From Dictyostelium discoideum (Eukaryota), in NCBI GenBank assembly GCA_000004695.1, contig CM000154.2, positions 2,304,001 to 2,368,000 of the forward strand: DNA of 64,000 nucleotides. Direction: 5' to 3'. Below the pieces are notes generated by a model. It was not told the origin of the DNA. It ran no database searches and worked only from the letters and a program-made list of their open reading frames with translations. Shown here piece after piece: positions 3,545-41,170 of this stretch (within the stretch, counting starts at the first letter, position 1; every line of letters begins with the position of its first letter). Made by a program: the position numbers and the translations under genes.

Positions 3545-4570
3545 ATGAAATTAAAATCAATAATAACTGAAATATTCGAAGTTATTGCTCCATTTTTTTT
3601 TAGTTTTTTAATTATTATATTTTCACCAATTTTAAAATTCATTTGTTTTAAAAAATCATTAAAATTTTCAAAACCTAAATCAATAGTTATTACAGGTACT
3701 TGTTCAGGTTTAGGAAGAGAATTAGCTTGTAAATATTCATCAATTTATAAAAATGATTTAACATTATTATTAATGGGAATGAATGAAGATAATTTAAATC
3801 AAGTAAAACAAATTTGTCAAAATCATGGATCAATTGTTTATACAATTATTGAAAATATTAAAAATAAAGAAAGAATGAAAAACCATTTAATTGAATTTCA
3901 TTCAAAACATCCAATTGATTTATTAATTGCAAATGCTGGTACAATTGAATGTAACTTTTATTTTTTTTTTATTTTTTTGTTTTTTTTTTTTTTTTATTAA
4001 CACACTTTAATTTTTTTTTTTTTTTTATTTTTAACATAAGCTCAACTTAAAGAATCGTTAAGTTTTGAAGATAAACTTCGTGAAATATCAGATACAAATA
4101 TTAATGGAATGTTAAATACAGTGTTACCTGTTATTCCATTAATGGAATCAAGAGGGTGTGGACAAATTGCAATAGTTTCATCATTGTCTAAGAATTTCTC
4201 GTCATTTTATGTTGGTTATAGTGCAAGTAAAGCATATATTTCAACATTTACTAAAATTTTAAGAAACAGATTACATGCATTAAATATTGGAGTTTATTTA
4301 ATTGAACCGGGTTATATTTCAACACCACTAACTCAAACATTAAAAATAAAACCTTTATTTGAAATTAAAATTGAAGATGCGGCACCAGAAATTATTGAAG
4401 GAATTGAAAATGGTAAATCATATATCTCATTCCCATTTAGTGCTCGATGTGTCTCAATTATTTCACATGCTGTTCCTGAATTTTTAACTGATGCCATTAA
4501 TTCATTTAATTCTTTCTTTTTTGGAAGATTTGATTTTCACAAAAAAGATATTAAAAATAAAATCAATTAA
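3545..4570 (+). CDS. Short-chain dehydrogenase/reductase (SDR) family protein, paralogue 1; exons 3545..3950 and 4041..4570
   Basis: Cofactor-binding motif VITGTCSGLGRELA (TGxxxGxG); NAG motif (IANAG); catalytic YSASK (YxxxK); PG motif LIEPGYISTP. The intron splits a codon (t|..|ct = Ser), giving a 312-codon CDS. The junction peptide ...ANAGTIE|SQLKESLSFEDKLREISDTNINGMLNTVLP aligns with paralogues 2 and 3. Confidence 0.8.
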
Positions 4571-4665
4571 ATTTTTATTTTTTTTCGGAAATTTCAATTT
4601 TACTTTTTTTTTTTTGGGCGATGGGGTTAATTTGATAAAATTATAAAAATATCTTATTTTAATTG

Positions 4666-4697
<32 letters not shown>

Positions 4698-4882
4698 CAG
4701 AATTAAAAAAAAAGAACAAAGATATTTTTAATTTTTTATTTTTAATTTTTATTTTTTTTTTTATTTTTTTTTTTAATTTATGATTTCGCAATCACCTGAT
4801 TTTTAATTTTTTTTTTTTTTTAATTTTTTTAATTTTTTTTTTTTTTATAATCAATTCACATATTTATAAAAACAAAAAAAAA

Positions 4883-5311
4883 ATGATATTATTTGAAGAT
4901 GTTGTAAAATCATTTATTGATAATATGAATGATTATTTAATGATTATAGTTTCATTCTTTGGTAGTTTATTATTATTATTAATTGGACCATTTTTAAATT
5001 TAATTAATATTACAAAGAATAAAACTAAATTTGGTACACCAAAAACAATTGTTATCACTGGAAGTAATAGTGGTATGGGTAGAGGTATTGCAATTGCATA
5101 TGCAAAACCAGGTGTAACATTAGGTTTAATCGGTAGAAACATTGAAAGATTACAAGACGTTAAAAATGAATGTATTAAAAAAGGTGCCAATGTTATCATT
5201 GAATCAATTGATATCACTGATAAAGAAAAAATGAATAATTGGTTATTATCATTTGATAAAAAGTATACTGTTGATATTTTAATTGCAAATGCTGCTGTAA
5301 GTGAATGTATG

Positions 5312-5348
<37 letters not shown>

Positions 5349-6046
5349 AAACATTTTTACTAATTTTTACAAAAAGTAATGTTACCAAAAGAATTAAATT
5401 TTAATGATAGAACATATGAACTTACAAATATAAATGGTAATAACAATAATAATAATAATATTTTTTTTTTTTTTATAAACAATATGTTAATTTATTTTTT
5501 TTTTTTTTTTTTTTTTTTTTATTTTAATAATAAGTAATGGGTATGTTAAATACAGCATTACCATTAATTGAAAATTTTGAAAAAAGGGGTAATGGTCAAA
5601 TTGTTTTAGTATCAAGTTTAACTAGTTATTTGAATTTTGTATTACCAACTTATTGTGGATCAAAAGCATTTGTAACATCATTTGGATTAACATTAAGAAA
5701 TAGATTAAAGGATAGTGGTGTTGGTGTTTCAATTGTTGCACCTGGTTTTGTTGATACTCCAATGTCTGATTCATTGAAACAAGATTCATTACCATTCTCT
5801 GTTACACCAAATCAAGCTGCTACAATAATATTAGATGGTATTAGTAAGAATAAAGCTTTTATTGCTTTCTCATTACCAACTTTATTATTCACCTACTTTG
5901 TAAATATTATCCCACCAAATCTTAAAGATTCTTGGAATTATATAAGTACATTTTTCTTTAAACATCCAGAATTTAATCCTCCAAATACTAGTAATAGTAA
6001 TAGTAATAATACAGATTCTTCATCTTCAAAATTTAAAAAAAATTAA
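4883..6046 (+). CDS. SDR family protein, paralogue 2; exons 4883..5306, 5377..5436 (60-nt micro-exon), 5535..6046
   Basis: VITGSNSGMGRGIAIAYA (TGxxxGxG); IANAA; YCGSKAF (YxxxK); PGFVDTP. Same first-intron position as paralogue 1. A second intron is needed because the read-through frame hits a stop inside an (AAT)n(T)n run. Total 332 codons. Micro-exon encodes LMLPKELNFNDRTYELTNIN. Confidence 0.7.
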
Positions 6047-6383
6047 ATTAAAAAATTAATATTATATTAATTATTTTTGATTTTTATAAACATTAAATAA
6101 AATAAGATGAAATAAAATATTTAAATTTAATAAGTGGTTATTATTTAGTTTTGAATTTTTTTTATTTTTTTTTATTTTAAAGATAATTTCGAACCTATTA
6201 ATAATTAGGTTTCCTTATTTTCATAATTTTTTTTTTTTTTTTTAATAATTAATTTAAATTTTATTTTTTTTTTTATTAATTTTGTTTTATTGTTTGATAA
6301 AAAAAAAAAAAAAATTTTATAAAGGGGTTAATATCAAAAAAAAAAAAAAAAAAAAAAACAATCATTTATCTGTGAAAATAAAG

Positions 6384-7522
6384 ATGGAATTATTTTGTTT
6401 TTTAAATTATGCAAATGATTTTCTTGTTTTATTTATGAATATAATAGGATCAATATTCATTTTAATAATTAGTCCAATTTTATATTTAATAAATTTAAAA
6501 AGAATTAAACAATTTAAAAAAGGAAAAAATATTGTTATTACAGGTAATATAAAAATAAAATTCTAAATAATAATAATAATTCTAAAATAATATTTTTAAA
6601 AAAATAGGTGCATCATCAGGATTAGGTGAATCATTAGCATTAAATTACTCAAAAAATGCAGGTGTAAAACTTGGATTAATTGGTAGGGATACTAATAGAT
6701 TACAAAAAGTTAAAGAAGAATGTTTAAAAAATGGTGCTGAATATGTTGAAATTGAATCAATTGATGTTTCAAATCAAAAAGATATGGAAAATTTTTTAAA
6801 TGATTTTAATAAAAGAATACCAATTGATATAATTTATGCAAATGCTGCTGTAAATGAATGTAATTATAATTTTTATTAATTAATTATTATTAATTATTAT
6901 TACCTCTACTAATATTTTTATTTTATAAATAGTGGTATTACCAAGAGAATTAAGTTTTACAGAAAGAGCAAATAAAATTGTTGATATTAATGTTTATGGA
7001 TTATTAAATACAGTTTTACCAATGATATCAATTTTTGAGAGTAGAAGTAGAGTTGTTAATAATAATAACAACAGTGGTGATGGTGGTGGTGGTGGTGGTC
7101 AAATTGTTTTAGTATCAAGTGTTGGACCAATGACAAATTTTGTATTTCCAACTTATAATGGTACAAAAGCATTTGTAACATCGTTTGGATTAACATTAAG
7201 AAATAGATTAATGGAACAAGGTATTGGTGTTAGTGTTGTTGTACCAGGTTATATTGAAACTCCAATGGCACATGTATTGAAACAAGAGAAATTAATGTTT
7301 TCTGTAACTCCTGAATATGCCGCTAGTAAAACAATTGAAGGTGTACAATTCAATAAAGGTTTAATCACATTCTCAAGATCAATTTATATGATGTCTGTTT
7401 TCTTTAGTTTATTTCCACCAAATTTTGCCAAAGATTCAATTGATTTCATATTATCCAAATTTATTAATTTCCCTGATCATAATAAACCAATGTCACCACA
7501 AGCAAATAAAAAAGTTGATTAA
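6384..7522 (+). CDS. SDR family protein, paralogue 3; exons 6384..6543, 6608..6859, 6933..7522
   Basis: Exon 1 ends KNIVITG|; exon 2 gives ASSGLGESLALNYSKNAG...IDIIYANAAVNE; exon 3 gives LVLPRELSFTERANKIVDINVYGLLNTVLP...YNGTKAF...PGYIETP. It has an extra intron inside the Rossmann motif that is absent from paralogues 1 and 2. Total 334 codons. The six-frame track starts at 6282 but the first ATG in frame is 6384. Confidence 0.7.
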
Positions 7523-9391: not shown

Positions 9392-9816
9392 ATAAATAAA
9401 AAAAAAAAAAGTTTAATTTTTTTTATTTTTTTTATCTGGTTATATAAATTTTGGACGTAAAGGTTTTTTTCCTTTTTTTTTTTTTTTTTTTTTCATTTTA
9501 TATTTATTTATTTTTTTATTTTTTATATTTTTAAAAAATAAAGAATTGTAAATAAATAAAAAAAAAAAAAAAAATTAAATTAATTAAAACTGTTTTATCC
9601 TTTTTTTAAAGAACTTTTTTTTTTTTGGAGAAAATATTGTCGTTGATGTGCGGAAAAAATAATTTATTAGATATTTTGGTTTCAAAGAGTAATCGCGATC
9701 AAATATTTTTTTTATTTTTTTTTTTTATTTTTTTTTTTTTATTTTTATTTTTTTTTTAGGGTTTTTTATAAATAGCTTTTATTTTTATCGAAAAAAAAAA
9801 AAAAAAAATAATAAAG

Positions 9817-10440
9817 ATGGAATATAAAAAAAATTCCATTCAATTTTTTACAAATATGGTTATTAATCGTTGGAGTGTATATATTTATTATGGCTTGCTT
9901 AATAATTTTTAAAAAAAAAAATTTTGTAATAAAGACATTATATTCATTGGAGCCGGAAAATGGTAAAATTATTTGAAAATAGATTTAATTGAAAAAAAAA
10001 AAAAAAATACAGGAGACTAAAAATAATCTAATAACTCACTTATAAAAAAAAAAATAAAAAATAAAAAATAAAAATTAAAAAGTTTCAGATCTTACTGCCC
10101 GAATCCTTTTCTTATGTAATATAAAATTTATAAATTCAATTTAATTTTTTTTTTTTTTTTTTTTTTAACACAAATTATTAATATTAATAGATTTAATTAT
10201 TATTATTATTTTTTTTATTTAGGGGTTTTTGGTAATTGGATACTCACCATCTCTAATGCTTTGAATTATGAAAAAAATAGTTTATTCTATTTAACTTGGT
10301 TTTCCTTTGTAGTTGGTCTAACTCATTATGCCTTTGAGTTTTTTTACTATAATACAAACAACTTTAAAAATAATATTTCACAACTATTTTTTGCTGGACC
10401 AGCTGTTTTCTTTATGGCAATTAGAATTTTATATTTATAA
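9817..10440 (+). CDS. Small multi-pass membrane protein, tandem paralogue A (exons about 9817..9962 and 10223..10440); reading frame broken by 1 nt in a T6 run at 9844..9849 (possible pseudogene or sequencing error)
   Basis: Exon 2 (VFGNWILTISNALNYEKNSLFYLTWFSFVVGLTHYAFEFFYYNTNNFKNNISQLFFAGPAVFFMAIRILYL*) and the exon-1 segment WLLIVGVYIFIMACLIIFKKKNFVIKTLYSLEPENG are clearly homologous to paralogue B. The ATG at 9817 (MEYKKNSIQF...) is in frame +1 relative to them; deleting one T in the T6 run gives MEYKKNSIQFLQIWLLIVGVY..., parallel to MET-FAIWLLMVGLY of B. Confidence 0.45.
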
Positions 10441-10832
10441 AATATGTGAAATAATTTTTATATACATAAAATTAATTAAAAAAAAAAAAAAAAAAAAAAT
10501 AATAAAGATGTGCAATTAAAAAGAAAGAAAAAAAAATTCATATACTAAAATCTTACTAATTTAATTATCTTTTAATTTAAATTATTTTTTTCAAATGGTT
10601 TTGCTTATTAATAGTTTTAGTTTAAATTTTTTTTTCCTTTTACCAGATAGTCTTTTTTTTTTGTTTTTAAAATTATTTAAAAAAAAAAAAAAATAAAATT
10701 AAATAAAGATTGTATATTTTTTTTTAATTAATAAAAAAGAAAATTTTCAATTTAATTAATATTTAGATTTTTAAATAATAAATTTTAAGTAAATAAAATT
10801 TTTAATAAAAAAAAAAATATAGTTTTAAGAAA

Positions 10833-10956
10833 ATGGAAACATTTGCAATTTGGTTATTAATGGTTGGATTATATAGAGTTTTTATGAGTTTTTTGATTTT
10901 GATACAAACTGATGTTCTAAAAAAAGTTATCTACCCTTTAAAACCAATTGAAGGTA

Positions 10957-11004
<48 letters not shown>

Positions 11005-11321
11005 TTATAGTTTATTTTGCCAAAATTTTTTTTTTTATAATTAATTAAAATAACTTTTTTTTTTATATAGTTTCACCACTATTTTGCAGAATGGCTTTTA
11101 TGTGGGTAATTTCAAATGCAATTTTAACTATTACCACTTCACTAAATATGGATAATAAACCGTTATATTTCATAACATGGTTAACTTTTGTGATTGGTTT
11201 ATCACATTTTATGTTAGAGCAATTTTATTTCAAAACAAATACATTAAAAAGTAATTTATCACAATTATTTTTTGCAACTCCTTGTTTGGTTATTATGGGA
11301 ATAAAATTATTGAATTGGTAA
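10833..11321 (+). CDS. Small multi-pass membrane protein, tandem paralogue B; exons 10833..10953 and 11071..11321 (intron contains a (TAT)n run)
   Basis: METFAIWLLMVGLYRVFMSFLILIQTDVLKKVIYPLKPIE|VSPLFCRMAFMWVISNAILTITTSLNMDNKPLYFITWLTFVIGLSHFMLEQFYFKTNTLKSNLSQLFFATPCLVIMGIKLLNW*. 124 codons with about four hydrophobic segments. No recognised family. Confidence 0.6.
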
Positions 11322-11721
11322 AAAAAAAAAATAAAAAAATAATCTATTTTTAGAAAAAAAGAAATCATTTTAAAAATAGAAAATAAAATAAAAAAAAAAA
11401 TAAATTAAAAAATATTTATAATTTGTTAAAATCTCCACTCAATTACAAAGAGAGAGAGGGAGGAAGTTCGTTTTTTATTTAATTTTATTTACGCATGTGG
11501 TGTATATATAAATATAGTAAAAGTATAATTTTTTAAGTTCACTAGAGAAAAGTATATACTTTTTTTTTTTATTTTTTTTATTTGTATGTTTTTATTTAAT
11601 AGTTTTAAATATTTCAAATTACTTATTTGATATTCTTTATTTTATTTTTTTTTCTTTTTTTTTCTTTTTTACTTTTTTTTTTCTTTTTTTTTTCTTCTTT
11701 TTTGATTTTCTTCTCAACCAT

Positions 11722-11887
11722 TTAAACATGTAGTTCACTAGGAGTTGGACTACTATTATTTGAATTATTACTGGAATTATTTGAATCTTTTTTCCCTCTT
11801 TTGAATTTCTTTATATGTTTTCCATTCTCTAACTGTTCTTCTTCTTCTTCTGATGCACTTGATAATTCATTTTCATCATTTTGATTG

Positions 11888-11973
<86 letters not shown>

Positions 11974-12155
11974 GTTACTATTATTATTATTTAATTTTTT
12001 ATTTGGTGATTCATCGCAACCATTAATATCTTTGTCTATTGAAGTTGGTCCATTACTTTTATCAATTTTCTTTGAAACAACAGATTCATTTTTTTCATAA
12101 TCCAATTTTCTTTTTGGTGTTGTTTTCCTATTATCTCCAATCTCTTGATTATTGC

Positions 12156-12186
<31 letters not shown>

Positions 12187-15158
12187 TGAATTATTACTTT
12201 TACCATTAAAAACAGTTTCGTCTGGCTGTGATTGGTTTTCTTTTTTAATATCTTTGGGTTGTTTTTCTTTAACTTTTTCATCTATTTCTTCCATTTCTAA
12301 ATTCTCTTTCATTTCATCTTGTTTTTCTATTTTTTCATCTTCGTTTATTTTATCACTATTGTTTTTGTTGTTACTTTTATCTTGAACATCGTCATTATTT
12401 TCATTATTTTCATTATTACCATTATTATTAAGATGATTTTTATTTTCTATATCGCTATTATTATCATTATCATTGTCATTATCATTATTATCATTATCAT
12501 CATTATCACTATCATTATTTTCTTTCATTATTTCATCTTTTTTTTCATTTTTATCTATTATTTCATGTTTTTCAACAATATCATCACTTTCTACAGATTT
12601 ATTAATTTCATCATCTTCATCATCTTCGTCTTCATAATCTACAATCTTTATATGACTACTACCATTTCCATTATTAGTATTTTCATTATCCTTTTCTATA
12701 TTATCATCATTTTTCTCCATATTATTTTCATTATTTGTACAAATTTGTTTATTATTATTATTGTTATTATTATTATTATTAATTGAAATCGGAATTAATT
12801 CATCTTCATCATCAGAATCTTCAGAATCATCATCTCTATTAAAATAAGCTTCTTCTTCTTCCTCATCGATTTCTCTTTGAGTTCTTTGATAATTATGATT
12901 AATTTTATTATTACCAATGATAGGTTTGCTATCAATATCATTGCTACTGCTATCGTTATTATTACAAGATGTTTCTGGACTTTCAAATGAAGAATCCTTA
13001 ATTTGTTCATACTTTAAAATCAATTGTTTTAAAACGTCGGTATAGGTTACCGATTCAAACAATTCTCTATACCTTTCGACTAAATAAACAATTAAATCCC
13101 TAATGTTCTCTTTGTAGATGTATTGAAATAGTTCTATGATTGCTGAATTTAATAGATTATACCTAGAAATGTTTGATTTGAAAACTTCAATGATTGGTTC
13201 AAATAGATTCTCTTGAATGATATGTTGATTATATAGGTCATCTTTCATATTTACCATTGATCTAAAAAATCTAATTGATCCAAGTATTAAATATCTTTCA
13301 CTATTTCCACCACCACCACCACCACCCCCACTACCTGTAGGGTTCGTATACCTTAATATCTTTTTTGCAATACCTTCTTCAACTATAAAATGTTTAATAC
13401 GATAGCAATGATGTTTAATACAATAGATTACCAACTCCATTATATTATAGAGTACAAATGAATCTAAATTACTACTTGGATCACCTGGTATTGTAGGCTC
13501 TCCTTTATAAACTTCATTCAATGGTGATACTAATAAATCTATACCTTTATCATAAAATAATCTAAAGAAATCGCTTGACTAATAATTATTCAGAAAAAAA
13601 AAAAAAAAAAAAAAAAGTTTAATATTTAAAAATATATATGTAAATAAATAATAATTTGTTTGATTTTCTTTTTTTTTTTTTTTTTTGAAAATTACTTACA
13701 TCATAAGAATCAGCTTCCAATAAAGTTTTAATAATTTCAACAATTTGATTTTTAACACCAATATCTTTATCAGTTATGAATAAATTTATTAATTGAACCA
13801 AGAATTTACTATTTCCACTGGTTGGAGAACATAGATATGATCTTAAAATTTCTGGATCATGTAATAATGTCGATAATACAATCTCTGTACATGATACTCT
13901 GGTTTGTACATTTTCATCATCCAAGATTGCTGATAAAGTTTTAAATAATCCTAATGAAACTACAACTGTAAAAAATGTTGATTTACTTTGAATTTGTAAT
14001 CCTTTTGCTAAATTACATAAATCTTGAAGAAATAATATTAAATCTTTTCTTTCTTCTGAATTCTTTTCACTTTTTTGGATTTCTGAAAATCTAATTTTAA
14101 AAAAAAAAAAAAAATATATAATATATTTTTAGGTTTGGTATTAATAATATGAATCAATCAAATTTGAATTCTTCCTAATCTATCTATCTTTATCACTCCT
14201 CTCTCCATCTCTCTCTCTAGCTTTTTTTATATTTTAAAATAAATCCTTACAAATTTTCTAAAAAATCTGAATCATTTTGAATTTGTGAAACTATATCTAT
14301 ATTATTAAAATAAATTAATGAATTTAATGATGAGAAAGTGACATCATCCAATACTCTTGGTAAAACAACATCTTTTAGATATTGAATTCTAAATGTTTGA
14401 TGAATAGTTCCAATTAATGATTTTGATGGGAACTTTATAACTTGTTTAAAAACTACTTGTTGATTTAAAAATTCTCTATGTTTAATTCTATTATTTTCTG
14501 AAATTTCTGGGTCATCTAAAAATTAAATTTAATTAATTAAAAAAAAAAATAGTTAATAACAAAAAAAAAAAAAAAAAAGTTAATACAAAACCTTAAATAA
14601 AAATAAAAAAAAAAAAAATATTTACATTCTAATGCACCCATAACTCTTACTAAATAATCTTCTGATAAAATAACCTCTAAAATTGATGTATCATTGAATA
14701 AAACTGTAAAAAAAAAAAAAAAAAAGAAAGAAAAATGTTAGGTTTATTTTTTTTTTTTTTTTTCAAACTGTAGGTGTGGGTAAATGGTTTTTTTTTTTTT
14801 TTTTTTAATTTAAAATTATTATTTATAAAAAAAAAAAAAAATACATACTAAGGTTTTTAAAAATATTGAATATTTGAAACAAGTGAACTCCTCCTTCACC
14901 TGATTTTTCAATTTCATCAAATAAATCTAATAATGATCTTACTAAATCCTATTTTTTAAAAATAATAAAAAAAAAAAATGTTAGGGAATTGGTTGCATTG
15001 GGGTTTTTGGTGCAATTGTGAATATAAAAAAAAAAAAAATGTTTTTTTTTTGAATTTTGTTTATTTTAGGATGTGCAAAGTAAATTAAAAAAAAAAAAAA
15101 AAACCACCATGTTGTTAAGATTATGTGATTGGTTTGATTTGATTTTTTTTTTTTTTTT

Positions 15159-15195
<37 letters not shown>

Positions 15196-15653
15196 ATCAT
15201 TACCTCTTTAAAAATTGAATTTATAATTTTATCTTTATCTAACATTGGTAATGAAGCTTCTAATAATTCATTAATTGTTTGAAGATTATTGATTGAAACT
15301 GGTGGTAAATCTAAATCTACACTATCACAACTACCAGTTCTTTGATTTTGATATTGTAATATGTTCTCCCAAATATCCTGACAACCCAATGAATCTTGAA
15401 ATGATAGGGCTAAATCTAATTGTGAATCTGGTTCTGTCCAAACGATTAAGGAATCTTGTTGTTTTTGATATATATCCTCTGCTGATAGTCGAGTTTGTAA
15501 AATTACACTGTTATCACTCTCTGATCTAACAATTAATCCCATTGCACATAATGCATCTACATATATACATGATACATGACCTGTACCTTTATCATCCCAC
15601 TTTCCGCTATTATCTAATTGATAGACTTTAACTCTTTTTCTAAGTGGTTCCAT
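11722..15653 (-). CDS. smkA: SMEK / protein phosphatase 4 regulatory subunit 3 homologue (EVH1-like N-terminal domain, DUF625/armadillo core, long low-complexity acidic/poly-Asn C-terminal half); 6 exons on minus strand: 15653..15204, 14948..14849, 14703..14626, 14515..14251, 14090..13700, 13578..11722
   Basis: Exon 1 MEPLRKRVKVYQLDNSGKWDDKGTGHVSCIYVDALCAMGLIVRSE... is a RanBD/EVH1-type fold. Later exons give LDLFDEIEKSGEGGVHLFQIFNIFKNL|ILFNDTSILEVILSEDYLVRVMGALE|YDPEISENNRIKHREFLNQQVVFKQVIKFP...IHQTFRIQYLKDVVLPRVLDD|...LAKGLQIQSKSTFFTVVVSLGLFKTLSAIL|...HHCYRIKHFIVEEG...GSIRFFRSMVNMKDDLYNQHIIQENLFEPIIEVFKSNISRYNLLNSAIIELFQYI, collinear with animal SMEK1/PP4R3. All donors are GTAAGT/GTATGT/GTAAAT and splice phases close (3141 nt = 1047 codons). 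Confidence 0.85.
11885..11975. repeat. (ATT/AAT)n coding microsatellite (poly-Asn tract in SMEK C-terminal exon)
   Basis: About 30 uninterrupted ATT units on the plus strand, equal to AAT codons on the minus strand. This is the source of the spurious poly-Leu plus-strand ORF. Confidence 0.9.
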
Positions 15654-17010
15654 TATTTATGTTTTTATATAATATATTTATTATTTTTATATTTATAGTT
15701 TAGTTTTGTTTTTTTTTTTTTTGTTGTTGTTGTTGCTTTTGTTGTTGTTGTTATTGTTATTGTTGTGTTTTGTTTATTAATTTTGTGTGTAGGAAATTAT
15801 AATGATTTTTTAAATATATATATATTAATGACCATATATTTTTAAAAAAATATTATAATTATTTTTATTATTATTATTATTACTGTTTAACTACTATACA
15901 TAAAATATAACATATAAATACACAATAAATGATATTGTGCTATGGCGATTGGTTTGTAGGTGTTGATGTTGGTGTTGATATTAGTGTTGGTGTTGTTTTC
16001 TTATTGACTATTGTTATTTTTTATTATGATTTTTTATTTTTATTTTTTTTTTTTTTACTAATTTAACAAATTAACTTCTAAAATTTTTAAATTTTTAAAT
16101 TTTTTTTTTTTTTTTTTTTTTAATTTAAAATTATTAGTATTATTAATAAAATAATAATAATAATAAAAAAACAATCCCTTCTTTAAGTAGTTTGTGTTTG
16201 TGTGTGAGTGTGAATATGATGTTATTGTTGTTTAATTAATTATTATTTTAATTTTTGTTGTTTTGTGTGTCTGCACCCTTATTAATAAAAATAAAAATAA
16301 AAATAAAAATAAAAATAAAAATAAAAAAAAAAAAAATTTAAAATTTTTTTTTTTTTTTTTTTTTTGTTTTTTTTATTTTTTTTTATTTTTTTTTTTTATT
16401 TTTTTAAATTTTTTTTTTTTTTTTATTAAATATTTTATACTCATATATGGAAGTAAAATTTAAAACATCCACAATTGTGGTTTTGATAAAAACAAAATTT
16501 TAAAAAAAAAAAAAAAAAAATTAAAACAAAGAAATTTTCGTAAGAATCTGATAATCAGATCTATTTTTTATTTTTATTTTTTTTTTAAAAAATGATGGAA
16601 TTGAAGTTTTAACTTTATTTTATAAAAAAAATAAAATAATAATAAATAAAAAAAAAAAAAAATAAATAATATTAAATAATTAAATAATAGTCATAGTATA
16701 AAAAAAAAACTTCCAAAAAAAAAAAAAAAAAAATTTTTTTTTAAACATTTACTGGAAACTGATGGTCATATTCCAATGATTGCAATCACTCAAATATAAA
16801 CAATGTTAAGAAATTAATAATTAAATTTATGGAATTTAATCCTTTTATTCAACAACAGCAACAACAAATCCTACTACTACAACAACAACGATAGGATGAC
16901 AGCAGAAACCACAGCAACGAATTATTTATCAATTAATGAATAGATTTCCAAATTTTGTTTGAATATCAAAAATGAGAAGGAGCTATTTTCCAAAAAAAAA
17001 CATAAAAAGT

Positions 17011-17083
17011 GCCTGGATGGCTCAGTAGGCAGAGCGAGCGGCTGTTAACCGCTAGGTCCATGGTTCGATCCCATGTCTAGGCG
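17011..17083 (+). tRNA. tRNA-Asn (anticodon GTT)
   Basis: Cloverleaf readable by eye: acceptor stem GCCTGGA/TCTAGGC (one G-U pair); D arm GCTCAGTAGGCAGAGC; anticodon stem AGCGG/CCGCT with loop CT-GTT-AA; T arm CATGG-TTCGATC-CCATG; discriminator G. A box TGGCTCAGTAGG at 17018..17029 and B box GGTTCGATCC at 17062..17071. Confidence 0.9.
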
Positions 17084-17087
17084 ATAA

Positions 17088-17102
17088 TTTTTTGGTTTTT
17101 TT
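17088..17102 (+). terminator. RNA polymerase III terminator (T6 GG T7) just 3' of tRNA-Asn
   Basis: Oligo-T tract beginning 5 nt after the tRNA 3' end. Confidence 0.7.
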
Positions 17103-17160
17103 AAATTATATAGAAAAAGGATCTAACAAAAGAAAGAAACATATCAGTATCCGTTCAACA

Positions 17161-17217
17161 AAAAAAACCGCACCGCGATCAAGAGGATAAAAAAACCGCA
17201 CCGCGATCAAGAGGATA
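17161..17217 (+). repeat. Tandem duplication of a ~28-bp unit (AAAAAACCGCACCGCGATCAAGAGGATA x2) at the 5' end of the retroelement
   Basis: Two adjacent near-identical copies seen directly in the sequence, within the 5' UTR/promoter module of the element. Confidence 0.8.
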
Positions 17218-17359
17218 CAAGATACACGTGAAAAGTAATTCATCCTTTTCTATCCTTAATCTCGGTCAATTTTAACCAATCTTTCAAAAAAAATCACCAA
17301 TCCACCACGATCTACAGATCTAATTTACCAAATCGCCGATTCAAAGGAATCCCATCGAG

Positions 17360-18081
17360 ATGAATTCCTACGCAGACGCGGCTAAAATGGCCAACCCCTC
17401 CACCCATATGGACGAGGCATCAGAGAACTTCATTAAGGAATTCTCCACAAAAACAGCAGAGATAAAGGAGACCTACCCCAAATTATCAATAGGCCTCAAA
17501 GACATCTCCAAATACTGCGAGACCATATTGAACATGACTGCTCTCTCAACCTACGAGAAAAACAACGGATTCTACCCAATTACACTCGAATTCCCCAAAA
17601 TGGATCTCATGGGGTTAGAAGAAATGAGAAAAACACTCTCAAACTACGATATCCCAATCGACAAGATATACATAGGCAAAGGAACTAGAAAAACGATCCA
17701 CCTGATGATTAAAAACGAACAATCTCTCCTAAATATCATTAGAGATAGAAGCAAATTGGGAACCTTCATCACCTCCAGTAGAGACTACCACGTCCTCACA
17801 GGAAGAGTAAGAATTCCAAGAGAAAAGGCAGGAATAGTGGATGCCCTCATCAAAACTGCCTTTGCAGAAGAAATACCCTATGCAATATACCATACTATAT
17901 ACTCCACCGACCACCTCCTAGTATTCGGTCTAATAGAATGCAAAATAGGCGATCAAATGAAATCTGGCCAACACAATACAGAAATCGCCAACTTTACCAT
18001 CAGAACGGCCACCAAAACCTACTCCTCACAAAAGAAAAATAAGAAAGTAGAGTCAAACAACACGGAAGAACCATTAGAAGA
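17360..18081 (+). CDS. Retroelement ORF1 (3' end lost in assembly gap)
   Basis: MNSYADAAKMANPSTHMDEASENFIKEFSTKTAEIKETYPKLSIGLKDISKYCETILNMTAL...; stop-free to the N-run. The apparent continuation past the gap in the ORF track is a frame coincidence. Confidence 0.6.
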
Positions 18082-18181
18082 NNNNNNNNNNNNNNNNNNN
18101 NNNNNNNNNNNNNNNNNNNNNNNNNNNNNNNNNNNNNNNNNNNNNNNNNNNNNNNNNNNNNNNNNNNNNNNNNNNNNNNNN
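18082..18181. other. Assembly gap (100 N) inside the retroelement
   Basis: Run of exactly 100 N. Gap of unknown true size; the ORF2 apurinic-endonuclease domain expected N-terminal to the RT is missing and presumably lies here. Confidence 0.95.
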
Positions 18182-18182
18182 A

Positions 18183-20270
18183 TTCTACAAGTACCACATC
18201 AACTCAATAGCAAGAATATTGACTATAGCTTTCAACGACCTCCTCACAAATAAGAAAGAAATCCCCACAAAATTCAAAGAAGGAGTAATAACAACAATAT
18301 TCAAAAAAGGAGATGAACTAAACATTTCAAATAGAAGACCAATCACCCTTCTCAATACAGATTACAAAATTTTAAGCAAAATTCTCAACAGTAGATTATT
18401 AGATATCACCAGTAAAATTATCAACAAATTTCAAAACGGCTTTGTTCCAAACAGGTTCATCCAAGACAATATTCAGATCATGAAGGAAGTAATAGAAATA
18501 AGTAACAAAAGAAAGAACAATACACTCATTACCTTTTACGATTTTAACAAAGCATTCGATTCAATCAGCCACAAGAGTATCACAAGAACATTAGAGCATA
18601 TTGGTATCCCCCCAAAATTCACAGCGATCCTACTAAACCTACTCAAAGATACTAAAAACAAAATAAAGATCAACGACTTTTTAGTCAATGGAATAACAAT
18701 CAGAAGAGGAACAAAACAAGGAGACCCAATATCACCAACAATCTTTGCTCTAGTTTTAGAACCACTTCTAATAGATATCATCAATGATAATACAATCAAA
18801 GGCTTCACTCTACCAAATTCCAAATCATTAAAACTCACTGCATTTGCTGACGACATAGCAACATTTACAAACTCCACTGAAGAACTAATGAAAATTAATA
18901 CTAAAATCCAAAAGTACTGCTCAGCAACATCATCATCGTTAAACAAAGAGAAAACAGTAATGATAGCAATAGGAGATAAACCACACGATCTACCATTCCA
19001 AGAGAGTACAGTCCCAGAAAGATATCTTGGCCTCAATTTCACCAAAACAGGTTTAAATTCAAAATACAACACTTTAATCCAAGAAATGAAAAACAATCTA
19101 ATCAAATGGAAATCACAAGCAATAACGATGAAGGCAAAGATGACAATTCTCAAAACATACGTTCTATCCAAATTAACATACCATCAATACATGGATAATC
19201 TAAATGAAGAACAAATTGAGGAAATCAATAACATGACCAGATGGTTCTTATTCTCCTCAGTTAAGAATACATATACAGAAGAGAGAAAATACAAAACTAT
19301 GATGAAAATAGACAGAGCATATGCAGATTGGAAAGAAGGAGGCATAAAATTATGGGATATAGAACTAAGACATATAGCATTCAAAATCTGGTACATGAAC
19401 AGGCTACTCCATAACAACTACAACAACAACAACAATACCTTACAAGAATGGTACATGGAGCAATTAAGTAGAAAAAAAGCCCACACTTCAACCCTCAACG
19501 ATATGTGCAGACACTGGGGTGTATTCAGAGTCAAATTTTACCAAAACCATCCAAAGATAAATGAACTTCCAGACTGTATAAGAAACGACAATGACGAACC
19601 ACTAAAACTGAAAGAAATTTACGAACTCATGATCAAAGACAGACACCCAACACCAAGAAGAACAGAATGGCAGAAGTTATGGGCGGTGAGATACAACACA
19701 GCAATACACAAAGTATTCATAAACATCAACAGCATTTCTCACCAAAAAGGTAGAAACACCCTCTTCAGATTCTTCTCAAGATCACTTCCAGGTATCAACC
19801 ACGAAAGAGACACCAGATGCAAGATCTGTGGCCACCTATTCAGAGACCCTTATTCTCACCTCTTCACTCTATGCCAAGATATCCTAGATATTGAAAAAAC
19901 CATCATATCAACAGTTAACAAATTATCATTCATCAAAATCCACAGATGGTCAATGGATACCTTAGACATATCAAAATACAACAGAACTGAGAGAATCTTC
20001 CCCAATCTCATAGGAATAATAGCACACCAATTATGGAAGATAATCTGTCACAAATTGTTCAACACTGATGAAAGCAAACCAGAGCCAAAATTCGAACAAA
20101 AGGTCATAGAAACAGAATTACTAAATCTCATCGAAACTGAAAAATTCATCACACTAAAGAAAATCAAACACGACGAAGCAATACTAAAAAACACCAATCA
20201 AGATCTTCACAAATACAAATTCAACAAAGCCTGGCAAACCCCAGCAGCTCCGAACCCTCTTCCAATTTAA
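18183..20270 (+). CDS. Retroelement ORF2, reverse transcriptase plus C-terminal Zn-knuckle-like region; 5' partial (open from the gap)
   Basis: Frame is open from the first base after the gap (FYKYHINSIARILTIAFNDLLTNKKEIPTKFKEGVITTIFKKGDELNISNRRPITLLNTDYKILSKILNSRL...). The ORF track's M at 18219 is actually a TTG codon. RT boxes as listed above; ends TAA at 20268..20270, immediately before the poly(A). Confidence 0.8.
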   Translation, partial: FYKYHINSIARILTIAFNDLLTNKKEIPTKFKEGVITTIFKKGDELNISNRRPITLLNTDYKILSKILNSRLLDITSKIINKFQNGFVPNRFIQDNIQIMKEVIEISNKRKNNTLITFYDFNKAFDSISHKSITRTLEHIGIPPKFTAILLNLLKDTKNKIKINDFLVNGITIRRGTKQGDPISPTIFALVLEPLLIDIINDNTIKGFTLPNSKSLKLTAFADDIATFTNSTEELMKINTKIQKYCSATSSSLNKEKTVMIAIGDKPHDLPFQESTVPERYLGLNFTKTGLNSKYNTLIQEMKNNLIKWKSQAITMKAKMTILKTYVLSKLTYHQYMDNLNEEQIEEINNMTRWFLFSSVKNTYTEERKYKTMMKIDRAYADWKEGGIKLWDIELRHIAFKIWYMNRLLHNNYNNNNNTLQEWYMEQLSRKKAHTSTLNDMCRHWGVFRVKFYQNHPKINELPDCIRNDNDEPLKLKEIYELMIKDRHPTPRRTEWQKLWAVRYNTAIHKVFININSISHQKGRNTLFRFFSRSLPGINHERDTRCKICGHLFRDPYSHLFTLCQDILDIEKTIISTVNKLSFIKIHRWSMDTLDISKYNRTERIFPNLIGIIAHQLWKIICHKLFNTDESKPEPKFEQKVIETELLNLIETEKFITLKKIKHDEAILKNTNQDLHKYKFNKAWQTPAAPNPLPI

Positions 20271-20275
20271 GTAGT

Positions 20276-20340
<65 letters not shown>

Positions 20341-20497
20341 GTTTAAAAAATTTAATACAATTGAATAATAAAAATAAAACCGTTTAACAAACACCGCCGA
20401 AAAGACACAAGGACATTCCTTGAAGGTCTGATCACAGGTAAAAAAAAAAAAAAGAAAAAGGATCTAAAGAAACTCTGTGTTCCTTGAATACCAGTTG

Positions 20498-20609
20498 AAT
20501 ATAACCAAAAATATCAACATATAACAATATAAAAATTTAAAAATTTAAAAATTTAAAAATGTAATAAAATATAACAATACACCGCTTTTAGGTAAAAAAA
20601 AAAAAAAAA
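20498..20609 (+). mobile_element. Severely 5'-truncated retroelement 3' end (112 bp ending in A16), flanked by a 16-bp target-site duplication CTTGAATACCAGTTGA (20482..20497 and 20610..20625); second insertion immediately downstream of the first
   Basis: Direct repeats bracket a segment whose end (…ACACCGCTTTTAGGT-An) resembles the 3' terminus of the adjacent full element (…ACACCGCCGAAAAG…CACAGGT-An). Confidence 0.55.
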
Positions 20610-20825
20610 CTTGAATACCAGTTGATATTTTAAAAATACAACTATTATTTAATTATTATTCATTTAAAAAAAAAAAAAAAAAAAAAAAAAACAATTACAT
20701 CTTTCTTTTTAAAAAAAACAAAATTATGTAATCTAAACTAAAATAATATCTGTATTTAAATCTAATCAAATAATTGTATTTTAAAAATTAAATATCATAA
20801 ATAAACCTATTAATTACTGTTTACT

Positions 20826-21000
20826 TCCTTTAATGGAAAAAAAAAATTCAATAGCTTTAATATTATTTCATCCATTATATTATCTATTAAATCTTCCTGA
20901 TACGAATCCTTTCTGATTATTGTTAATAATTTTTGGGAGTATGTATATTAATCTATTATTAATTGCTTTAGATTGAATCAAATAATCTTTTTTTGGAAAC
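20826..21000 (-). pseudogene. Degenerate fragment of a non-LTR retrotransposon reverse-transcriptase ORF (frameshifted)
   Basis: Minus-strand translation gives KAINNRLIYILPKIINNNQKGFVSGRF, a frameshift, then IDNIMDEIILKLL. It parallels ORF2 of the neighbouring element (ILNSRLLDITSKIINKFQNGFVPNRFIQDNIQIMKEVIE) but is AT-decayed and out of frame. Confidence 0.45.
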
Positions 21001-21137
21001 AACTAATAAAAAAAAAAAAAAAACAAACTTTAATAAAATTTTATTTTTTTTATTTTTATTTTTATTTTTATTGATAAAATTAATTGATCAATAACCAATC
21101 TTTGATTCAAAAAAAAAAAAAGGAAGATAATGATTAT

Positions 21138-21178
<41 letters not shown>

Positions 21179-21207
21179 TTTTGGAAATAATAATTATTAT
21201 TAAAAGT

Positions 21208-22112
21208 TTAAATTGGTTTTCCACAAGATGAACAAAAACGTGCAGTTTGAACTAAAATTTTTGAACCACAACCTGAACAAAAGTTTTTATGAGCATAAGA
21301 ATGAGAAGGTGGGGGTGGAATTGGTGACGGAGTAGGAGTTGGTCTATATGGTGCTGGTGGTGGTGATGAATAAGCTGTTGTTTGATGATGATAGGCTGTT
21401 GGTGGTGGTGGAGGTGGAGGTGTAGTTGTATAATGGTATGTTACAGTTGTTGTGGTTGTTGTAGTTTTTGGATGATCATGATGGTGATGATGTTTATGTT
21501 TATCCTTCTCTTTATCTTTATCTTTATGAAGTGCTGATCCTCTAACTTCATTTCTTAAATCATCAACCCATTTCTATAAATAAATAAAAAAAAAAGATTA
21601 AATTAATTAAAATTTAAAAAAAAAGAATAAAAATGAAAAAAAAAAATAAAAAAAAAAAATATCTTGTGGGAAATATCTTTTTTTTTTTTTTTTTTTTTTT
21701 TTGGATATTTAAAAGAAATCAAATATATATAAAAAAATAATACCTCTAAAAAATCCTTTTTCTTTTCTTTTTTCTCTTTATGTTCTTTATGTTCTTTATG
21801 CTCTTTATGTTCTTTGTGTTCTTTATGATGGTGATGAGTTTTACATTCTTTTTCTTTTTTTAGGTCCAATTCTTTTTTATTGTGGTGGCAACCTGGGCCA
21901 TGAATGCAAGTAGTTGGTGCTGAATGATGGTGATGGGATGGTGAGTGATAAGATGATGGTGGTGGTGGTGGTGGTGGTGAATGGTAATGAGAAGAGGATG
22001 ATGATAAACCTGAATTTGATGCATAGCCAGTTGTTGAAACATAGCCAGGTGCTTGAGTTTGAGTGGTGCCTGGACCAACTGTAGTTCCTGGACGTCTATA
22101 TGGTGTTGCCAT
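21208..22112 (-). CDS. His/Pro/Thr-rich low-complexity protein with (HKE)n repeat and C-terminal CxxC...CxxC zinc-ribbon; exons 22112..21744 and 21573..21208
   Basis: Exon 1: MATPYRRPGTTVGPGTTQTQAPGYVSTTGYASNSGLSSSSSHYHSPPPPPPPSSYHSPSHHHHSAPTTCIHGPGCHHNKKELDLKKEKECKTHHHHKEHKEHKEHKEHKEHKEKKEKKKDFLE, donor GTATTA. Exon 2: KWVDDLRNEVRGSALHKDKDKEKDKHKHHHHHDHPKTTTTTTTV...PPPPPPPTAYHH...HKNFCSGCGSKILVQTARFCSSCGKPI*. 244 aa, phase 0. Confidence 0.65.
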
Positions 22113-22624
22113 TTTTTAATTAGACTTAAATTAGTTTAGATTTTAATTTGTTCAAAAATATTTGGTGTGGGAAAAAAAAAAAAATTATTTGTGTGATGGA
22201 AAAAAAAAAAATTATTTGTTTGTGGTTTTTTTTTTTCTATTTTTATAATTTTTTTTTTACAAAAAAAAAAAAAACTAATTGATGTGATTTCTTTATTTTT
22301 AAAAAGTTTACGATAATGTTACAAAATAATATAATAAAAATACAAATTATTTTAAAAAGAGAGAAAAAATAAAATAAAAAAAAGAAAAAAATAAAATAAA
22401 AAAAAAAAATTAAAAAAAAAAAAAAAAATTAAAATAAAAGGAGTTGGTGGTCTGAAAATGTTTTAAAAGAATTGTTTTTTATTTTTTTATTTTTTTTTTT
22501 GATTAGTTTATGATAAAAATGTCAAAAAATTGACATTCATGCTGTGATGTTGTCTCTTGCATGCAATATTAATATGATTATTCTTCTTGGTTTGTTTTTC
22601 TAAAATAGAAAAGTTTAGGTGTTA

Positions 22625-35149: not shown

Positions 35150-36400
35150 TTTTATTTAAATATTTTATAACCAATTTGTAAATATTGAATTGATGATGGA
35201 ATATTTAAAAGTTTATTATCACCATTTTTCTTTAATGATAATAATTGATCAATTGTTATAAGATTATTTTCAACCATTTGTTTTTAAAATATATTCATCT
35301 GTTAATTTTAATGGTTGATTTAATCTGAATGGTAAATTTAATGATTTTAATGATTTTGGGAAAAAGTTGATATCTAATATATTGAAACTTTCTATTTTAA
35401 ATGCACTATAATCTCTATAGGTATCAACGTAGTTAAGATATGTTAAACTTTTTGGAAAACAATTATTAAAACTTTATGTTTACCAAGTGTAAGTTCCAAT
35501 ATTTCTAAATTTGGTGGCAATGTGTTGATAGTTAATAATGGTATTACTGGAGCATTTATAAATGAAAGTTTAGTTAAATTTAAAAGTTTGTTTAATGATT
35601 CATCTTCAATTTTAACAAAAAAACAACATTCAATTTTAAAATTAATAACACTTTGAGGAATCATCTCTTTTAATATCAAATGAACTATAGTTAGTGTTTA
35701 GTCTGAGATTAGGAGTTGTTAGTGAGTTTGGTATAGAGAATGGTGGAATTTGACCATGAGTATCCAAATTTAAAGTTTTTAAATTCTTTGGTAAAAAACT
35801 TAACAATTGTCTTTCTTGACCTGGTTTTAAAATAATGCCAATTGATAAAGTTTCAATTTTATTAAGAGGAACATCATTTGCACAAAAAATTTAAATAAAA
35901 GGATATTCATCACCACCATATGGAATAGATTGTTCTTTTAAGATTTTGGAAGTATTTTTCATTTAAATAACTCGGATCTGTTGAAATATGAAAACTTATT
36001 TTCTCAATAGTTTCTGGAATTAGTGATGAGATGTTTTTAGTTTCATCTAATATCAAATCAAACATTACATTCTTGACTGAAGTAACTGATTTTGGTAATG
36101 TTGATATATTGTTGAACCAGTATTATAGTTTTTAGAGTAAATCACAGTTGAAACACCCATTGGTATTATAATACCATCAATTGTACCTTCATGATCAACA
36201 AATGAAACTATTTCTAATGCACCATAAAATGGTAAATCATGATCAAATGAAACTTTTTCTAATACACCACAAAATTGTAAATCACCACATCCTATTTTCT
36301 CTAAACCAGTATACTTTATATATTGTATATATTCTCTCTCTTTATATTCAATTAATTCATTCCTTGAGGAAAATATTTTACATTTATTTTTATTATAAAT
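35150..36400 (-). pseudogene. Decayed tandem copy of the adjacent FNIP-repeat gene (internal deletions, frameshifts, stops)
   Basis: Stretches at 35150-35220, 35285-35350 and 36160-36360 are 80-90% identical at DNA level to 36650-36700, 37180-37250 and 38190-38400 of the intact gene. Only short ORFs remain (e.g. 35443..35679 MIPQSVINFKIECCFFVKIEDESLNKLLNLTKLSFINAPVIP...). Confidence 0.55.
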
Positions 36401-36542
36401 TTCCTATAAATATCTTAATGGTAAAAGATTTTTTATTTTTTTATTTTTTTATTTTTTTTTTCACCAAGGTTATTAATAATATAATATTTATTATTTATTT
36501 TTTTTTTTTTGTTTTTTGGTATTAAAATTTTTTTTCTTTTGG

Positions 36543-36575
<33 letters not shown>

Positions 36576-36634
36576 TAATTTATTTCATCACCCAAGCAAT
36601 CCAATCTTTTTTAAAAAAAAAAAAATTCTAATAT

Positions 36635-40339: not shown

Positions 40340-41170
40340 TTTTATTTTATTTTATTTTATATTAAATATATTTTCTTTTTTTTTAAAACAATAATTATAA
40401 TATATTTTTTTTTTTTTTTTTTTTCTATCTTATTATTTATAAATAATTTATTTTTAATTGTATTATTTGGTTTTTATTAATGGATCTAAAATGAATTTAT
40501 AAAATTTTAATTTAAAAAAAAAAAAAAAAAAAAGAATAATAAAATAAAAAAAATAAAAATAATTAAAAAAAAAAAAAAAAAAAAAAAAGTTACTATCTCA
40601 AAACATTGATTTAAAATCTCAGATAAATCACACCACCCCCTAATTTTTTTTTTTTGAAAATTGAAAAATCATGGAGGCAGGTCCACTTCCAGATCCCAAA
40701 ATACCACTCCATTTTTTTTATTTTTAGGAAAATTCAAATCCACCTTTAATTTTTTAATTTTTTTTTTTTTTAATAAAAAAACCCGAACTTTTTTAACCTT
40801 TTTTTTTTTAATTTTAAATAATTTTAAATTCCCCCACTGTTTTTTTTTTAAAATTTCAAATCTTACAATTTTTTTTACATGGTTTAAATTTCAGATCAAA
40901 CTTTTTAAAATTTGAAGGGGGAAAAAAAAAAAAATTAAAAAAATTAAAAAAAAAAAAAAACCAATCGATATATTCCCCCAGAAAAGTAACCACACAAAAA
41001 CTATTAAAAGATAAATTAATACGTTTATTTTAATTATTTATTATTTTTTTTTTTCCAATGGTTTGTGTGGTGTGAAAATGTAAAGATATGAAAAAAAGAA
41101 ATTTTTTTTTTTTTTTTCAAATCGATATTTATTGCGATTAACCCTGTGGTATCTGTGTGGTTTTTTTTTT

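Follow-up and report, generated by a model that had tools for sequence, protein, structure and literature searches.

A tRNA-Asn gene and the block inserted downstream of it

The window analysed here, a stretch of 64,000 nucleotides of Dictyostelium discoideum DNA, contains a tRNA-Asn gene followed by a block of inserted sequence, which is bounded by an exact 15-bp repeat and interrupted by an assembly gap. The locus lies on chromosome 5 of D. discoideum AX4.

17010-17084, + strand: tRNA-Asn (anticodon GTT), the targeted Pol III gene, located by ARAGORN
17062-17072, + strand: B box GGTTCGATCCC, internal to tRNA-Asn, from a B-box scan
17112-17126, + strand: left copy of the outer target-site duplication (TSD), AGAAAAAGGATCTAA, an exact repeat directly after which the inserted sequence begins
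18082-18181, no strand: assembly gap of 100 N, standing for 6,463 bp in the orthologous locus
20453-20467, + strand: right copy of the outer TSD, AGAAAAAGGATCTAA, an exact repeat directly 3' of the poly(A) of element Y

The tRNA gene, already named in the preliminary description of this DNA, is confirmed by ARAGORN and by Rfam (RF00005, 17011-17083, 64.3 bits), and is the sole match in an Rfam scan of 16800-17500. Motifs resembling an ex-B box, with at most 3 mismatches to GGTTCGAATCC, were found in none of the flanks scanned; hence no claim for an ex-B box is made. The rise in GC content reported for the block is equally confirmed, with values of 0.31-0.44 between the 15-mers against 0.11-0.24 outside them.

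The 15-mer has exactly two occurrences and is a genuine TSD, produced by the insertion of element Y; it had been recognized as an exact duplication, but with the second copy at 20452-20466, one nucleotide off. The reservation that it might be a common low-complexity motif is addressed by a survey of direct repeats in the window (exact, at least 15 nt, at least 4 G/C, spacing within 10 kb), in which comparable non-repetitive pairs are nearly absent: apart from the outer 15-mer and a pair of 16-mers located 30 bp beyond it, nearly all pairs are triplet repeats or paralogous genes, the one exception being a 15-mer pair at 40985/43303.

Two families on opposite sides of the gap

The preliminary description took the block for one TRE3 element about 45 bp downstream of the tRNA-Asn gene. 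The element type is borne out and Y begins at 43 bp, but the elements are two; X and Y serve as working labels for the two TRE3-type families to which they belong.

17127-17156, + strand: first 30 nt of Y, an orphan leader, from its continuity across X in the orthologous locus L011
17147-17156, + strand: left copy of the 10-bp X TSD, GTATCCGTTC, from comparison with L011
17157-17159, + strand: AAC, three extra nucleotides at the X 5' junction, from X 5' junctions compared at 8 loci
17160-18081, + strand: 5' part of X, with 99.2% nucleotide identity to X in locus L002 and 0 mismatches to L011
17160-17359, + strand: X 5' UTR, its first 28 nt tandemly duplicated
17360-18079, + strand: first 240 codons of X ORF1, the reading frame extending to the gap edge (18081)
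18182-20270, + strand: 3' 695 codons and stop of Y ORF2, 100% identical to P0001
20271-20452, + strand: Y 3' UTR (A run, module and tail), a layout conserved in other Y copies
20271-20278, + strand: GTAGTAGT, 8 nt, start of the Y 3' UTR
20279-20331, + strand: A53 run of the Y 3' UTR
20332-20439, + strand: 108-nt terminal module of Y, ending in GATCACAGGT
20440-20452, + strand: A13 tail of Y

Both an ORF1 and an ORF2 are present, as had been claimed, but they come from different families and stand on opposite sides of the gap: sequence comparison assigns the ORF1 on its left to X and the ORF2 on its right to Y. The ORF2 proteins of the two families are 38% identical and their ORF1s are unrelated; the X-type element that matches the left part of the window at 99.2% has an ORF2 without nucleotide match to the right part; and full copies of the right-hand family have an upstream ORF1 starting MNFFDKLK..., as against MNSYADAAK... 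in the window. The window itself shows only the reverse transcriptase (RT) and zinc-finger motif of Y and the N-terminal part of X ORF1. The RT predicted in ORF2 is confirmed at about 18303-19037 (Pfam RVT_1 PF00078, E=1e-36), and a zinc-knuckle motif, CX2CX9HX4C, occupies 19818-19874 at the C-terminus. From M100, Y ORF2 is the AX4 model DDB_G0289107 (596/596 identity, a private His included), and codons 89-240 of X ORF1 are the gene model DDB_G0289071 ('partial').

At the 3' end, the short module and the A13 tail had been described accurately, but the internal run, given as A50, is A53. At the 5' end, the tandem duplication reported as 27 bp is real and measures 28 bp (17161-17188 / 17189-17216, exact); it is, though, the 5' terminus of X rather than of the whole block, with 33 nt (17127-17159) between it and the TSD. 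Other X copies have an incomplete extra unit of this 28-nt terminus.

The gap-free ortholog

The orthologous locus L011, in another D. discoideum assembly (GCA_054883475.1, CM142511.1), is free of gaps. Its flanks show 0 mismatches to those of the window across 5,082 and 4,090 nt, its synteny is the same (a PP4R3/SmkA-like gene and Erg28), and the 15-mer AGAAAAAGGATCTAA is present on both outer sides of the composite. The true span of the block there is 9.7 kb. The size of 3.3 kb given in the preliminary description overlooked the 100-N gap inside the block and is therefore not its length. What the gap stands for in L011 is, in order, the remainder of X ORF1, a 1234-aa ORF2, the X 3' UTR, an A25 tail and the right X TSD; then TCATACAT, 243 bp of Y ORF2 sequence in inverted orientation and a truncated Y ORF1; and last the opening 452 codons of Y ORF2, in which the APE domain lies.

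A single TRE3 of about 3.3 kb, with its own ORF1 and ORF2 and a 15-bp TSD, would account for the exact 15-mers that flank the block and for the shared orientation of the ORF1-like and ORF2-like frames; yet the ORFs are separated by the 100-N gap and derive from different families, and the gap-free ortholog holds 9.7 kb with two elements that have separate tails and TSDs. The family difference and L011 together refute the single element, which has practically no chance of being correct. In the AX4 assembly, the 9.7-kb repeat composite would have remained unbridged, 6.46 kb being replaced by 100 Ns; with these hidden, the X 5' end and the Y 3' end resemble a single 3.3-kb element. DDB_G0289071 and DDB_G0289107 are therefore, with about 6.5 kb hidden between them, fragments of two elements, not one.

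A scaffolding artefact, in which the gap joins unrelated loci and the 15-mer is a chance or paralogous match, is extremely unlikely. Mis-joins do arise at gaps in repeat clusters, and short repeats abound in AT-rich genomes; but the independent assembly shows the same flanks around one continuous composite, non-repetitive exact 15-mers are nearly absent elsewhere in the window, and gene order in D. firmibasis matches on both sides of the tRNA. In that species the orthologous tRNA-Asn lies upstream of the PP4R3 gene, and the flanks do not align with AX4. The interior of the composite is known from a single other assembly, L011, and a repeat-induced misassembly there is formally possible; it is opposed by the X TSD, the left copy of which is in the window.

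Anatomy of X and Y

In L011, X occupies 9801-15085 (5,285 bp, ending in the A25 tail) and encodes an ORF1 of 417 aa and an ORF2 of 1234 aa; the stop codon of the former and the start codon of the latter share the sequence TAATG (L011 11252-11256), and ORF2 is read in the -1 frame. ORF2 has a clear RT match (PF00078, E=1e-33) and a weak APE match (E=2e-4, 21.6 bits against a Pfam curated cut-off of 24.5), and aligns to the APE of Y with 26% identity (E=4e-10). The element starts 76 bp 3' of tRNA-Asn, 30 nt inside Y; at 7 loci (6 besides tRNA-Asn), X copies begin +62 to +158 3' of a tRNA gene on the same strand.

The right copy of the X TSD, GTATCCGTTC, falls within the N gap of the window (L011 15086-15095) and follows directly on the A25 tail. 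It bears on a model in which the block is one chimeric X/Y element from a single integration, the RT having begun on Y RNA and switched to X RNA, with the 28-nt duplication and the orphan leader as further template jumps, as modelled on L1 chimeric retrocopies. Such a chimera would fit the single outer TSD with an X 5' end on its left and a Y 3' end on its right, the position of the 28-nt duplication exactly at the X 5' terminus, and the gene models P0006 and P0009, which resemble chimeric or internally deleted TRE3 copies. X in L011, however, has its own 3' UTR, A25 tail and 10-bp TSD, and therefore represents a separate integration event; the chimera is rejected on the tail and TSD, and we consider it very unlikely.

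Y starts 43 bp 3' of tRNA-Asn and is 5'-truncated within ORF1. Its orphan leader, 38 nt in all, resumes after X with TCATACAT and is followed by an inverted Y segment of 243 bp (L011 15104-15346); direct Y runs from 15345 through the tail. Neither strand of any X or Y copy matches the 33-34 nt that separate the TSD from X, and their similarity to a reconstructed full-length Y 5' UTR is not significant (p about 0.26); that they are an X or Y 5' terminus is rejected, as L011 places them in the leader of the rearranged Y. Y ORF2 has 1146 aa in L011 (PF03372, E=1e-9; PF00078, E=3e-36); judged from the sequence, this ORF2 (APE-RT-zinc knuckle) and the 3' end of Y are intact there. Here too, ORF2 is read in the -1 frame, and its start codon overlaps the stop codon of ORF1 in a TAATG (locus L001 97-101). 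Y copies begin 43-81 bp 3' of same-strand tRNA genes at 4 loci (elsewhere at +43, +77 and +81).

Further insertions nearby

20483-20625, + strand: third insertion, including its exact 16-bp TSD CTTGAATACCAGTTGA (20483-20498 / 20610-20625)
20889-20987, - strand: decayed reverse-transcriptase fragment, 72% identical by tblastn to aa 371-402 of X ORF2

The body of the third insertion (111 bp, 20499-20609) is the 3' end of an extremely 5'-truncated retroelement, which ends in ACACCGCTTTTAGGT and A16. It lies 31 bp past the Y site, at +74 in the coordinates of the empty site. Its 15-nt terminus and poly(A) are seen again after a Y tail in loci L008 and L009; since its alignment to the 3' module of Y is weak (z about 2.6), it is not assigned to Y. 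The fragment at 20889-20987 is probably an old TRE relic.

Integration history

We consider it highly probable (about 0.93) that the locus records sequential TRE3-type events at one tRNA-Asn gene: Y with the 15-bp TSD first, X nested in it later, and the 111-bp fragment. The anatomy, TSDs, nesting order, domains and distances are taken directly from the sequence. Y would have integrated 43 bp 3' of the tRNA, co-oriented with it, duplicating the 15-bp target AGAAAAAGGATCTAA; full-length X would then have integrated at +76 from the same tRNA, 30 nt inside Y, duplicating 10 bp (GTATCCGTTC); and, before or after either of them, a further element would have left its 111-bp 3' fragment with a 16-bp TSD. 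By what the literature describes, each step would proceed by target-primed reverse transcription, with guidance from the Pol III/TFIIIC (B-box) complex of the tRNA gene. The tRNA-Leu(AAG) gene at L009 offers an independent precedent for X nested in Y: Y lies at +43, its 5' UTR contains nested X copies about 50 nt in, and the outer TSD of the composite is GTTATAAT. Y can be reconstructed from L009 3587-3636 and 9788-14482.

Relation to known retrotransposons

TRE3 elements integrate about 40-150 bp 3' of tRNA genes and share their direction of transcription (PMC5911963, PMC5006619), and TREs hit the same tRNA gene sequentially, which leads to tandems (PMC5006619, Additional file 1, Table S2). 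Y at +43 and X at +76, both on the + strand, agree with this, and the position and orientation in the preliminary description hold up: the insertions lie 3' of the tRNA, co-oriented with it, and have poly(A) tails. The poly(A) tails and TSDs (8-16 bp at the other loci examined) are those of non-LTR elements, and the architecture has two ORFs, with APE, RT and zinc finger in Y, and RT and a weak APE in X. For TRE3-A, a -1 frameshift has been reported; in both X and Y, ORF2 lies in the -1 frame relative to ORF1. TRE3 (TRE3-A to TRE3-D, L1 clade) thus shares with X and Y the host, two ORFs, APE/RT/zinc knuckle, poly(A), TSD and sequential targeting, and there is no essential difference, apart from the 5' truncation and inverted duplication of this Y copy. 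The database names of the homologues are all 'hypothetical protein' or 'reverse transcriptase domain-containing'.

Two other groups resemble these elements in part. TRE5-A/B/C are alike in their non-LTR type, the domain order of ORF2 and tRNA targeting, and a homologue search gives TRE5 ORF2 about 33-37% identity to Y; but TRE5 inserts on the upstream side of tRNA genes, at about 50 bp and in opposite orientation, and all three insertions here are downstream and co-oriented. The LTR retrotransposon Skipper-2 (DGLT-P) likewise targets the region downstream of tRNA genes and is equipped with LTRs, an integrase and a chromodomain; the present elements end in poly(A), no long direct terminal repeats or integrase were found, and Pfam returns only RVT_1 and Exo_endo_phos.

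The inverted self-segment and filler of Y and the repeated 28 nt of X resemble 5' inversions and rearranged 5' junctions of mammalian L1, as they arise by twin priming and template switching. In L1 twin priming, the inverted part lies 5' of the direct part on the RNA, whereas here the 243 bp duplicate the direct region; to our knowledge, no mechanism of such a 5' rearrangement has been established for TRE3. X may be a currently active TRE3 lineage, since the copy is intact and five loci in the same genome encode an identical ORF1 protein. That the 5' ends record template switching by the TRE3 reverse transcriptase and that X is possibly an active lineage is, taken jointly, a tentative reading, doubtful rather than probable; we know of no documentation of either for TRE3, and by analogy both would be modest extensions of L1 and R2 behaviour.

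The nested pair itself is already known TRE biology and ordinary for this genome. As a textbook case of TRE3 elements clustered at a tRNA gene of D. discoideum, the locus has little significance beyond annotation. It does provide a fully resolved example of sequential targeting, with events at +43, +74 and +76, and a copy of X that is apparently intact and so suited to activity testing.

The insertion block and its assembly gap

The block downstream of tRNA-Asn(GTT) is delimited by two copies of the 15-mer AGAAAAAGGATCTAA, which exact matching finds exactly twice, and lies to the right of a minus-strand PP4R3/SmkA-like gene. Its landmarks in AX4 are as follows.

17010-17084, plus strand: tRNA-Asn(GTT), ARAGORN
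17011-17083, plus strand: tRNA-Asn(GTT), Rfam, 64 bits
17112-17126: 15-mer, left copy, exact match
17147-17156: left target-site duplication (TSD) of element X
17160: start of X
17161-17188 / 17189-17216: tandem duplication, exact, 28 bp
18082-18181: 100 Ns
20268-20270: stop codon of the right-hand ORF
20279-20331: A53 run, 3' of this stop codon
3' of the A53 run: 108-nt module ending GATCACAGGT, then A13
20453-20467: 15-mer, right copy, exact match
20483-20498 / 20610-20625: 16-bp repeat CTTGAATACCAGTTGA, exact, bracketing 111 bp

The preliminary description had read this block as a single TRE3-type element of 3.3 kb. The GC rise on which it drew is borne out (0.31-0.44 within the block, 0.11-0.24 outside), as is the reverse transcriptase encoded in the right-hand ORF (PF00078, E=1e-36); the 15-mer pair, the 3' layout and the 5' tandem duplication are also present, except that the right 15-mer starts one base later than had been given, the internal run is A53 rather than A50, and the duplicated unit measures 28 bp, not 27. 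The single element itself does not stand, and the window's sole gap, the 100 Ns separating the two ORFs, had been overlooked. Nests of this kind are already known, and the genome has been studied closely; what is added here is the correction of a 3.3-kb element to a 9.7-kb nest of two, masked by the gap. In a list of all exact direct repeats in the 64-kb window (minimum length 15 nt, no fewer than 4 G/C, at most 10 kb apart), the AGAAAAAGGATCTAA and CTTGAATACCAGTTGA pairs are the sole ones that are neither triplet-type (CAA/GTT) nor paralogous, bar a 15-mer pair at 40985/43303. Runs of exact 15-28-mers at constant offset also mark two tandem paralogous gene pairs, at ~3900-7200 (offset ~1.5 kb) and ~35200-38300 (offset ~2.0 kb).

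The gap is bridged by L011 (CM142511.1:2353945-2375198), the orthologous locus in D. discoideum GCA_054883475.1, which is flanked by the same genes. Left of the gap, window 13000-18081 pairs with L011 5654-10722, and right of it 18182-22270 pairs with 17186-21254, both with no mismatches and homopolymer-length indels only; it follows that 6,463 bp lie behind the 100 Ns, and the TSD-bounded block of L011 spans ~9.7 kb.

9651-9725: tRNA-Asn
9753-9767: outer 15-mer, left copy
9768-9797: 30-nt leader, last 10 nt GTATCCGTTC
9798-9800: AAC filler
9801-15085: full-length X (ORF1 417 aa, ORF2 1234 aa, A25 tail)
15086-15095: GTATCCGTTC, second copy
15096-15103: TCATACAT
15104-15346: inverted Y ORF2 copy, 243 bp, reverse complement of window 18963-19205
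15345 to tail: direct Y (ORF1 from ~codon 125, intact 1146-aa ORF2 with PF03372 and PF00078, A run, module, A14)
after the A14 tail: outer 15-mer, right copy

Two element families

The ORF parts on either side of the gap match known AX4 models on chromosome 5: the ORF2 part is identical to DDB_G0289107 from Met-100 (596/596, including a private His absent from other copies), and residues 89-240 of the ORF1 part are the same as the 'partial' model DDB_G0289071. A single element with its own ORF1 and ORF2 is rejected by the partners of these proteins elsewhere. The ORF2 part has 100% protein identity to P0001 (1147 aa, APE and RT), in whose cluster the ORF1 directly upstream reads MNFFDKLK...TTTTTTTTTKPINK (full-length gene models and contig L001), whereas the window ORF1 begins MNSYADAAKMANPST; it matches a different protein, P0135 (417 aa, 99%), and the ORF2 at that locus (L002) has no nucleotide similarity to the right part of the window and 38% protein identity to its ORF2. 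Judged by sequence, the left ORF1 (X) and the right ORF2 (Y) thus belong to two families. Both families have a TAATG in which the stop codon of ORF1 overlaps the start codon of ORF2, the latter being read in the -1 frame (X, L011 11252-11256; Y, L001 97-101); this would also fit termination-reinitiation, as against the -1 frameshift of the reviews.

Order of insertions

Between the two outer 15-mers, X has a separate tail and a separate 10-bp TSD; the order is therefore fixed, with Y inserted first and X second. A matching architecture occurs independently behind tRNA-Leu(AAG) (L009), where Y lies at +43 with outer TSD GTTATAAT, and two X copies, a full one and a deleted one, sit ~50 nt inside the Y 5' UTR. 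The 417-aa X ORF1 protein P0146, identical to the window's 240 residues, is itself identical at five loci of GCA_054883475.1 (L010-L014, including L011), and at 4/5 another TRE ORF follows within ~300 bp after X, an indication that X was active recently and often stacked on older elements.

At the 5' junctions, X begins with a 28-nt unit of variable copy number (window 17160-17216; L002, L005, L006, L009, L012, L013, L014): one in most copies, one plus 8 nt (AAGAGATC) in L009 and L013, and two full units at the window locus. Y bears here its 243-bp inverted ORF2 duplicate, preceded by a 38-nt orphan leader, an arrangement similar to twin priming but not of the classical form. The leader and inversion of Y and the duplicated terminus of X look like footprints of template switching, short of proof.

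A third insertion and other relics

The 111 bp within the 16-bp repeat end in ACACCGCTTTTAGGT and A16. This 15-nt terminus with poly(A) recurs after the Y tail in L008 and L009 (L009 14483-14510), and solo Y 3'-module insertions with their own TSD exist (L005 ~12255-12370); by these features and its TSD, 20483-20625 is a third, extremely 5'-truncated retroelement insertion behind this tRNA, at +74 in empty-site coordinates. About 420 bp past the composite, in opposite orientation, lies an AT-decayed RT fragment (20889-20987, minus strand) with 72% amino acid identity to X ORF2 residues 371-402. Among gene models from D. discoideum and D. citrinum, P0006 has a C-terminus identical to Y behind an N-terminus that is TRE3-like but divergent, and P0009 fuses Y 5'-UTR sequence directly to mid-ORF2; both resemble TRE3 copies that are chimeric or have internal deletions.

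Placement and relationship to TRE3

Downstream of same-strand tRNA genes, the element start lies at 62-158 bp for X (seven loci) and at +43 to +81 for Y (four loci); TRE3 elements lie 40-150 bp downstream of tRNA genes, co-oriented (PMC5911963), and TREs can target one tRNA gene sequentially, yielding tandems (PMC5006619, Additional file 1, Table S2). Both X and Y behave as TRE3 elements and show all testable defining features, with a partial exception in the X endonuclease domain, whose Pfam match falls slightly under the curated cut-off; neither the placement of TRE5 relative to the tRNA gene nor the architecture of LTR elements is found here.

Directly visible in the sequence are the poly(A) tails, the TSDs (10, 15 and 16 bp), an orientation shared with the tRNA, the order of nesting, the APE-RT-zinc-knuckle ORF2s, and the insertion points at +43, +74 and +76. 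By what is known of the L1 clade and from the TRE literature, integration would proceed by target-primed reverse transcription, and the Pol III transcription complex at the B box of the tRNA gene would set its position. As the AX4 flank holds no recognisable ex-B-box-like motif, the point of reference is probably the internal B box (17062-17072).

In D. firmibasis, the orthologous tRNA-Asn and synteny are kept, and the flanks are not alignable to AX4. There (L007 7830-8560), the tRNA gene has a canonical external B box, GGTTCGACTCC, at ~+33, followed downstream by three repeats of a ~125-bp unit.
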